A DNA stretch of 64,000 nt, taken from the NCBI GenBank assembly GCA_964016885.1, contig OZ024743.1, forward strand, positions 125,240,001-125,304,000. The letters run 5' to 3'. The position numbers and the translations under genes were made by a program. This DNA is from Eledone cirrhosa (lineage: Eukaryota). A model generated the notes under the pieces. It was not told the DNA's origin. It searched no databases and worked only from the letters and a program-made list of their open reading frames with translations. The first letter of the stretch is position 1; each line of letters opens with the position of its first letter. This document shows positions 1,545-40,615 of this stretch, in pieces.

Positions 1545-2045
1545 TGCGCTAGACAAACACTACTGGAGTTTCAGAAGGAATACTGGACCAGAAATACATA
1601 TAGTAATCTCTTCGACATAACTATGGGCTCTAGTGATTCCGCCCAAATTACCGATCTTGTGGGCCTCTTTCTTCTATTTAACATTAATTCATCTTTTCCC
1701 CACGTTAAAGGTGGTTTATATCGTGATGACTGTCTTCTTCTTTCCACTAATCTTAGCCTATCAGAAATTGAAAGAAATAAAAAACTTATTAGAACTTTCC
1801 TCAAAGACTATTACAATCTCACTATTACATTTGAAAACACCAGTAAAATAGTCAATTTCCTTGATATAACATTAGACTTATCTACGGGTATCTACCAACC
1901 TTACCATAAACCTAACCAAAACTTACATTACATACACTCACAATCCAATCACCCTAGATCTATCCTTAAAAATCTAGCATATAATATCTCACTCAGAATT
2001 TCTAACCTTTCATCTAACCAGGATGTATTCGATAAAAACACTCCC
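1545..2045 (+). pseudogene. Penelope-like element reverse transcriptase fragment (Hydra-clade-like), truncated at both ends
   Basis: Translation FDITMGSSDSAQITDLVGLFLL...GGLYRDDCL...VNFLDITLDL...YHKPN...SNHP shows the PLE RT motifs. The DNA is closely similar to the reverse complement of 45330-45575. Confidence 0.85.
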
Positions 2046-2094
2046 TGGTTTTTCATCAGATGTGAGAAAAACCACAGACCCTCCATCTCAACTC

Positions 2095-2133
2095 CACTTT
2101 TGAAAAGCAGAAGAACTGCGAAACCGGTAAAGG
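2095..2133 (+). ncRNA. Minimal type I hammerhead motif, U3:A8 variant (copies at 2880-2917 on - and 2987-3025 on +)
   Basis: ctt-TTGAAAA-gcag(aagaa)ctgc-GAAA-ccgg-TA-aag: short stem I, 4-bp stem II, palindromic stem III and a GUA triplet. Confidence 0.6.
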
Positions 2134-4619: not shown

Positions 4620-4651
<32 letters not shown>

Positions 4652-4657
<6 letters not shown>

Positions 4658-5216
4658 TTAAAACAATGAAATAAAAAATCAAGTCCTTAGAGATATACTT
4701 CACTGCTTTACGATCGTTTCTAGATGCTGATAATACATTGTATCTATACTCAGTTATTGATCTATGTAAGTTTACAAACTATCAGATAGAGAGAATATTT
4801 ACTTACATGCATATCACCAGCTGTTTTCAAAAGCAATAATAATTTTATTCAATAATAATTTTACTCAGAATTAATATCATGTCCATATTTGGAGGTAGTT
4901 GAAGAACTAACGAATCAAATTGTTTTTTTCGCATGTAAGTAAATATTCTCTCTATCTGATAGTTTTTAAACTTACATAGATCAATAACTGAGTATAAATA
5001 CAATGTATTATCACCATCTAGAAACGATCGTAAAGCAGTGAAGTATATCTCTAATGACTTGATTTTTTATTTCATTGTTTTAACTTATATCATGACTCTG
5101 TTTTCCTTTTAATGTTTTATTGTTTTCTGAGATTTATCTTAACCTACAACATTTTCAACATATGGATTACATTGAGTTCTTCATACAGAATAGACCCCAC
5201 AACTTACAGTGGATAC

Positions 5217-5225
<9 letters not shown>
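4652..5225. mobile_element. Head-to-head (fold-back) PLE pseudo-LTR insertion in (TA)n
   Basis: 4652-4810 is the inverted copy of 4931-5090. The long arm ends with TACATTGAGTTCTTCATAC, which is homologous to the PLE end at 40260-40440. Both sides are flanked by (TA)n. Confidence 0.7.
4700..4839 (-). ncRNA. Hammerhead ribozyme with long stem II, U3:A8 variant
   Basis: On -: ttattgctt-TTGAAAA-cagctggtgatatgca...tgtattatcagcatcta-GAAA-cgatcg-TA-aagcagtga, with a 9-bp stem I. Confidence 0.7.
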
Positions 5226-31574: not shown

Positions 31575-31612
31575 ATTTTTGAAAAGCATTAGAAATGCGC
31601 AACCGGTAAAAC
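31575..31612 (+). ncRNA. Degenerate hammerhead motif (U3:A8; GAAA mutated to GCAA)
   Basis: ttt-TTGAAAA-gcat(tagaa)atgc-GCAA-ccgg-TA-aaa, the same architecture as 2095-2133. Confidence 0.5.
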
Positions 31613-40460: not shown

Positions 40461-40615
40461 TTCATTATTTAACGATCGTTTCTAGGATATATATGTGTTA
40501 GAATTGGCATGCATATTCAACAGATCTATGTACAAAATTATACAAAATTATACAAACTATCAAGATTAAATATACATACCAAACACACATATACGCCGTC
40601 TTCAGAAATAATGAA
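40461..40615 (-). ncRNA. Hammerhead ribozyme with ~116-nt stem II (mirror copy at 49406-49560 on +)
   Basis: ttcattattt-CTGAAGA-cggcgtatatgtgt...acacatatatatccta-GAAA-cgatcg-TT-aaataatgaa, with a perfect 10-bp stem I. Confidence 0.82.

Follow-up and report, generated by a model that had tools for sequence, protein, structure and literature searches.

The window, the whole stretch of 64,000 nucleotides of Eledone cirrhosa DNA that was analyzed, carries on its minus strand a type I hammerhead motif of a retroelement lineage here called A (4700..4839), in which positions 3 and 8 are U3:A8 and for which the cut is predicted between 4709 (A17) and 4708. The motif comprises the 5' strand of stem I (4839-4831, UUAUUGCUU), which forms 9 bp, three of them G-U, with the 3' strand at 4708-4700 (AAGCAGUGA); the core U3-U4-G5-A6-A7-A8-A9 at 4830-4824 (U3 at 4830, A8 at 4825), which reads UUGAAAA as the earlier note had it; a stem II region of 103 nt (4823-4721) bearing a conserved UGAUAKUUUGUA / UACAUAGAU module; GAAA (4720-4717); the palindromic stem III CGAUCG (4716-4711); and U16.1 and A17 at 4710 and 4709, all on the minus strand. 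The stretch 4839-4700 therefore contains the required elements of a hammerhead core (UUGAAAA, GAAA, U16.1, A17 and a Watson-Crick combination at 3:8), together with two traits of the hammerheads of Penelope-like elements (PLEs), the A-CGAUCG-U palindrome and a C as the extra base after A9. The usual, though not universal, G10.1-C11.1 pair is absent, with C opposite A followed by A-U or G-U in all 15 rows of the alignment described below. Stem I of lineage A is predicted with pair probabilities of 0.84-1.0, and the stem II sequence beside the core is predicted to form a long hairpin in lineage A and in its sister lineage B, more weakly in the window copy. The fold of this copy is weak by itself (z -1.68, with 10 of 200 shuffles equally good), and its stem II has a mismatch that is absent from most copies and common to 3 of 30 query-matched loci.

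The motif lies within a 280-nt stub of a 5'-truncated pseudo-LTR (4651..4930, minus strand), which ends in (TA)n 58 nt past the cleavage site. The stub abuts, in head-to-head orientation, another truncated copy (4931..5220, plus strand; arms 4651-4810 and 4931-5090), an inverted partner that begins inside stem II, without the 5' half of the core, and has a longer downstream tail with a (TA)n end. Most short copies terminate in (TA)n. Copies end not at the cleavage site itself, but about 55-75 nt downstream of it or in the longer tail, positions that the internal-initiation model set out in the available text of PMC11167929 would allow.

Two homologues in the window belong to lineage B and carry C3:G8, one on the minus strand (40462..40615, U17, core at 40605) and its inverted partner on the plus strand (49406..49559, core at 49416). 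The CUGAAGA core that the earlier note gave for them is present in both, and so are the shared GAAA-CGAUCG-U and the stem II blocks GATAGTTT / CATAGATC that it had found in common with the window copy. Also as described there, the stem I sequences differ yet pair in each case, over 9 bp in lineage A and 10 bp in the lineage B homologues, with two double, compensatory changes between the lineages (G-C/A-U and C-G/U-A). In an alignment of 15 subfamily rows, 92.2% of 283 cells pair compared with 33-52% in slid controls, a figure that leans positive, the rows being hand-picked and the structure drawn from the same sequences; because the rows are related, the shuffle counts of this alignment are not probabilities. 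Positions 3 and 8 are CG in eight of these rows, UA in six and another combination in one. A structural descriptor with both positions left free returned 360 matches in 1.30 Mb and 2 in the reversed control, and the genome-wide patterns presented below gave 0-1 control matches, so that the hammerhead motif is not a product of chance.

The hammerhead of lineage A is found in a pseudo-LTR, 3' of an RT plus GIY-YIG frame and in an inverted-repeat layout (L031, L315, L317), and that of lineage B lies likewise 3' of such a frame, both in the window and at three further loci (L319, L320, L323). The window frame (44240..45577, minus strand) is open for 445 aa and contains, by eye, the RT thumb region, a CxCX5C linker and, at the C terminus, a GIY-YIG domain. 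Compared by eye with the available text of PMC8557442, the motifs are those of the Hydra clade, namely CxCX5C in the linker, CCHH absent, and CxxC with CxH around the conserved E and N; they read CNCRNRSIC, CRLC and CNH in lineage A (L317) and CNCRNKANC, CRLC and CNH in the lineage B frame of the window, and a related family (L314) was the only one in which a DKT motif was recognized, again by eye. Pfam gave no useful match for the PLE fragments or for the 445-aa frame, and none of the 365 candidates scored in a search for homologues restricted to the size range 780-2225 aa, which is weak evidence. On these motifs both lineages may be assigned to sister Penelope-like retroelements of Hydra-clade type; Naiad was considered as the clade and dropped, the endonuclease being C-terminal. 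Two other RT fragments occur in the window, one of a lineage B-like element (1548-2051, plus strand), interrupted by an inverted cluster of the short type C hammerhead described below, and one of a more distant related family (36223-35912, minus strand).

The RT pieces of lineages A and B are 76-80% identical, and in a tree of 24 RT rows those of lineage A are grouped at 82/84, with nine more distant rows separated at 96/97. One of these nine (L314) is contiguous with a C3:G8 hammerhead, and with this single mapped outgroup the parsimonious direction in lineage A is CG to UA. We infer this direction from the outgroup family and from the predominance of CG among hammerhead families of this genome (8 of 10, see below).

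Genome-wide, the long-stem clade was counted with exact patterns anchored on the common 3' core (reversed controls 0-1), which yield lower bounds, copies with changes in the anchor being uncounted. There are 10,095 C3:G8 copies and 1,136 U3:A8 copies. The mixed classes are far smaller than the ~1,060-1,090 expected in each under independence: 101 matches have U3 without A8 (among the 100 matches listed, by eye 81 UG, 6 UU, 2 UC and 11 off the core) and 74 have C3 without G8 (by eye 56 CA, 12 CU, 5 CC and 1 off the core). CG and UA thus make up 11,231 of 11,368 Y3/R8 copies, in agreement with the expectation of the earlier note that CA and UG would be few, and its description of the change as a double one that keeps the Watson-Crick pair holds. 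The division follows descent: among the matches listed, 100 of 100 CG rows are of lineage B and 98 of 100 UA rows of lineage A, the other two being off the core. U3:A8 is fixed in lineage A and C3:G8 in sister lineage B, and U3 and A8 remain constant across lineage A subfamilies that differ at position 7 and in stem II.

The table of copies cannot serve as independent support for the pair, since each lineage is fixed for one state and the frequency of single mutants is at the level of background decay: 0.75% and 0.45% in lineage B and 0.86% and 0.35% in lineage A, against a background of 0.45% in B and 1.2% in A (3 and 8 of 660 sites, respectively). The table for lineages A and B records one switch, not thousands. 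With two lineage-level switches documented in all, the statistical weight of the pattern is low. Inserted copies decay freely, and we infer that selection, if there is any, operates on the active master elements and not on the copies they have inserted. Some U3/G8 copies have other variants in common (L078-L080), and of the 22 U3/G8 loci that were checked, 13 are truncation or inversion junctions, without the normal 5' flank. One U3/G8 locus (L059) was considered as a fixed intermediate subfamily and rejected, its family being mostly C3:G8, with five U3/G8 among the descriptor matches of a search that started from a U3/G8 query. The 3/8 table leaves aside 215 matches in which position 3 is a purine, found with a looser pattern; among the 100 listed, most are A3 on lineage B.

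A second type of hammerhead with U3:A8, here called type C, is short and has a CCGG loop; it lies at 2096..2133 on the plus strand, with more U3:A8 copies whose cores are at 2912 (minus) and 2992 (plus). The earlier note had reported UUGAAAA in an unrelated type at 2100, 2992 and 31579, and this stands for the first two; the third (31576..31612, plus strand) is a degenerate relative, since GCAA replaces the expected GAAA, with loss of A13. Genome-wide, the CCGG-loop clade gave 23,930 matches and 323 in the control; the 100 matches listed comprise 96 U3:A8, 3 mis-anchored CG motifs and 1 U3/G8, and those with U3:A8 have four or more distinct stem II sequences. The main family of this clade has 13,798 copies, with A8 in 100 of 100 among the matches listed and U3 in 30 of 30 loci, and in two loci (L308, L312) it follows, on the 3' side, an RT-EN frame in which CX4CxxC and CCHH motifs mark the putative host as a Neptune/Nematis-type element, from a distinct Penelope clade. 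With such a host, the type that the earlier note called unrelated is likely an independent origin of U3:A8. An endonuclease next to type C in another locus (L305) is part of a nested element from a different family and was discarded.

Ten hammerhead families are present at three or more loci, mostly retrieved through anchored searches; eight are C3:G8, two are U3:A8 and none is mismatched. In 400 kb sampled at fixed intervals, the descriptor gave 22 matches (14 CG, 5 UA and 3 G3), of which one UA and the three G3, all of these from one locus without stem III, are probably due to chance. The window itself has 15 descriptor matches, including nine further type I hammerheads with C3:G8, from five other families, at 2426(-), 2590(+), 25651(-), 32548(-), 32972(-), 38163(+), 38961(+), 39595(-) and 52608(-). 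Families with the CCGG loop, U3:A8 and other stem IIs also occur (e.g. L221:+1140), some with C17 or U17. Many hammerhead families of this genome, among them those with CTAATTAG, CTAG, CACGTG and CAATTG loops, have a 1x1 mismatch (C/A, U/U, A/A or A/G) where stem II meets the core, which replaces the directly stacked G10.1-C11.1 pair.

Taken together, the sequence evidence favors, with a probability of roughly three in four, a type I hammerhead in the terminal repeat of a PLE, in a lineage that swapped C3:G8 for U3:A8, which likely still cuts the element RNA after GUA, probably in dimeric form and assisted by the protein that the element encodes. The transcript of the pseudo-LTR would fold stems I and II. 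In the hammerhead structure the tertiary pair 3:8 positions residue 8, and U3:A8 would keep this pair in place. Stem III would be too short on its own, and the palindrome ACGAUCGU, for which a self-duplex is predicted at -10.0 kcal/mol, may pair two copies and permit cleavage in the dimer, a mode proposed for PLE hammerheads in PMC4209133; no hammerhead fold is predicted for the monomer. Opening the core is predicted to cost 2.0-3.3 kcal/mol, with 2.0-2.8 in lineage B too. Assistance by the protein of the element is suggested by analogy with the anole element PAc, whose hammerhead, according to the available text of PMC11167929, needs that protein and is inactivated by single mutations at 3 or 8, with partial rescue in the double mutant. 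According to the same text, cleavage is dispensable for insertion in vitro.

The selection on cleavage activity that the earlier note had proposed is probable for U3:A8, the pair persisting across diverged subfamilies and in a second clade; the copy counts, as seen above, lend it no support. One competing explanation is that two independent neutral transitions, C to T and G to A, hitchhiked in a master copy and that their pairing is coincidental. Both are common transitions in this AT-rich genome, a single switch explains the whole A/B table, single mutants are not depleted among copies, and a Saccoglossus PLE hammerhead with U3/G8 appears in the available supplement of PMC4209133. However, the two lineages stand ~21% apart in RT and have stems with compensatory changes, and yet no other core base differs between them; in addition, a distant clade is likewise fixed for the double state, with several types of stem II, and not one of the ten families is mismatched, which together make coincidence very unlikely. 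A reading that allows selection but dispenses with catalysis holds that the hammerhead-like fold is a structural or protein-binding signal and that lineage A cuts poorly or never, U3 pairing with A17 and so extending stem I over the cleavage site. Such pairing is indeed predicted, with a probability of 0.85 for lineage A, 0.52 for type C and 0 for lineage B, and A17 is present in 70 of 70 lineage A matches and 54 of 54 type C matches. A comparable C3-G17 trap is described in PMC3884650, where G17 variants are 8- to 100-fold slower, and cleavage of PLE hammerheads in vitro is weak (PMC4209133). On the other hand, the C3-G17 trap slows and does not stop natural hammerheads, and G17 variants with tertiary contacts still cleave (both in the available text of PMC3884650); nearest-neighbor folding ignores the tertiary core; U3:A8 coexists with C17 (3 of 96) and U17 (2 of 96) in the CCGG clade, among the matches listed; and a non-catalytic fold gives no reason to restore 3:8 or to keep all other core bases. 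A lineage A in which cleavage is poor or lost is for these reasons regarded as unlikely.

Two further proposals concern stem II, the length of which is the only feature here that looks unusual: it measures 103-116 nt, instead of the compact helix II of about 4-8 bp of PLE hammerheads, and keeps the internal-loop module across lineages as diverged in RT as A and B. The stem II blocks could be the splice signals of an intron of 42-54 nt, with a shorter, spliced form as the working ribozyme. A GTAAGT/GTATGT donor, a YTGAT branch and a CATAG acceptor do occur in this order in both lineages (4806-4762, minus strand, in the window), and introns touching the hammerhead have been described in Penelope elements (PMC4209133, available text). 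Against this, the search for precisely spliced copies, which covered lineage B, found none among more than 10,000 copies, its 14 matches being an unrelated tandem repeat, and the intron-like letters form conserved helices, with UGUA:UACA paired in 98% of cases and the donor-like stretch paired in the folds; splicing is accordingly considered extremely improbable. Three contig sets of unspecified kind from one sample, uninformative on expression, contain no listed change at positions 3/8 and no joint of the putative intron. The other proposal retains catalysis and treats U3:A8 as part of a gated ribozyme, in which the U3-A17 pair would hold the RNA uncut and the stem II module would be a docking site at which the protein of the element, or stem I, turns on cleavage. 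The chances of this are slim. If it were true, the CG and UA sister lineages within one genome would be a natural pair on which to test the role of the hammerhead in Penelope transposition.

The preferred reading, a catalytic hammerhead with a compensated core pair, has clear precedents, and the novelty of a natural U3-A8 that the earlier note implied is contradicted by publications of 2011 (PMC3088659) and, for Penelope hammerheads, 2014 (PMC4209133). Perreault et al. (2011; PMC3088659) described C3/G8 covarying to U3/A8 in several natural hammerheads, the change being compensatory and the variants active in vitro; the pair is the same as here, and the available text has neither a Penelope link nor a lineage-level count. 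Cervera and De la Pena (2014; PMC4209133) found U3-A8 in Cercyon PLEs of Schistosoma mansoni (~1,300 matches), noted that the standard descriptor missed such hammerheads and, in the available supplement, have S. mansoni UUGAAAAA beside its S. japonicum homologue CUGAAGAA, again a UUGAAAA/CUGAAGA pair. As far as the available text goes, the Cercyon hammerheads resemble those of lineage A in being type I, in the pseudo-LTR location, U3-A8, the base after A9, the palindromic stem III and the occurrence of opposite-strand pairs. They differ in stem II, which has at most ~8 bp and a short loop in the Cercyon alignment rows and 103-116 nt here, and the present motifs have a stem I of 9-10 bp, no G10.1-C11.1, A as the cleavage base and an unpaired A before G12, for which one alignment row of PMC4209133 has AGAAA.

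Similarly, the Hydra clade described by Craig et al. (2021; PMC8557442) agrees with the present elements in the C-terminal GIY-YIG, CxCX5C, the lack of CCHH, CxxC/CxH, insertion at (TA)n and the possession of hammerheads; according to the available text, its members are mostly shorter than 3 kb with canonical hammerheads, whereas the elements described here have long 3' UTRs and the long stem II. PAc, a Poseidon element of Anolis (PMC11167929, available text), also combines a PLE hammerhead with two alternative copy ends downstream, in the tail. It belongs to another clade and has a C3:G8 core and no long stem II, and its 3:8 pair was tested by compensatory mutation with activity measured, whereas the pair described here is known from sequence. 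The U3:A8 swap is in this respect a further example of a known phenomenon and no new principle. Its contribution is the scale, ~24,000 U3:A8 motifs in one genome and in two Penelope clades, and the clean comparison afforded by sister lineages that differ at exactly the 3:8 pair, both of which support purifying selection on the catalytic core.

These motifs, roughly 24,000 in the genome, would be missed by a CUGANGA search, as the earlier note had pointed out, and descriptors built on CUGANGA or with limits to a short stem II undercount hammerheads. At the gathering score, Rfam gave 0 matches in the window for C3:G8 and U3:A8 motifs alike, and since it misses both core states, this blind spot is not peculiar to U3:A8. 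By E-value, no hammerhead was among the Rfam matches listed (150 of 536 weak ones), which are microsatellite-driven miRNA matches.

Truncated copies show further regularities. The predicted cleavage site is altered by A runs, small duplications, deletions or a (TA)n end at eight loci (L096, L100, L101, L106, L109, L110, L116, L117), which come from a search that selected for changes there. Among unselected lineage B copies, 10 of 30 break or flip strand within ~12 nt upstream of position 3, in the 5' strand of stem I (L181-L183, L187-L189, L192, L194, L196, L197), which points to this strand as a hot spot of truncation and inversion, possibly through fold-back of the cDNA on stem I. Four lineage B stubs (L193, L202-L204) are joined at stem I to another upstream sequence that all four share, and may represent a composite non-autonomous subfamily.
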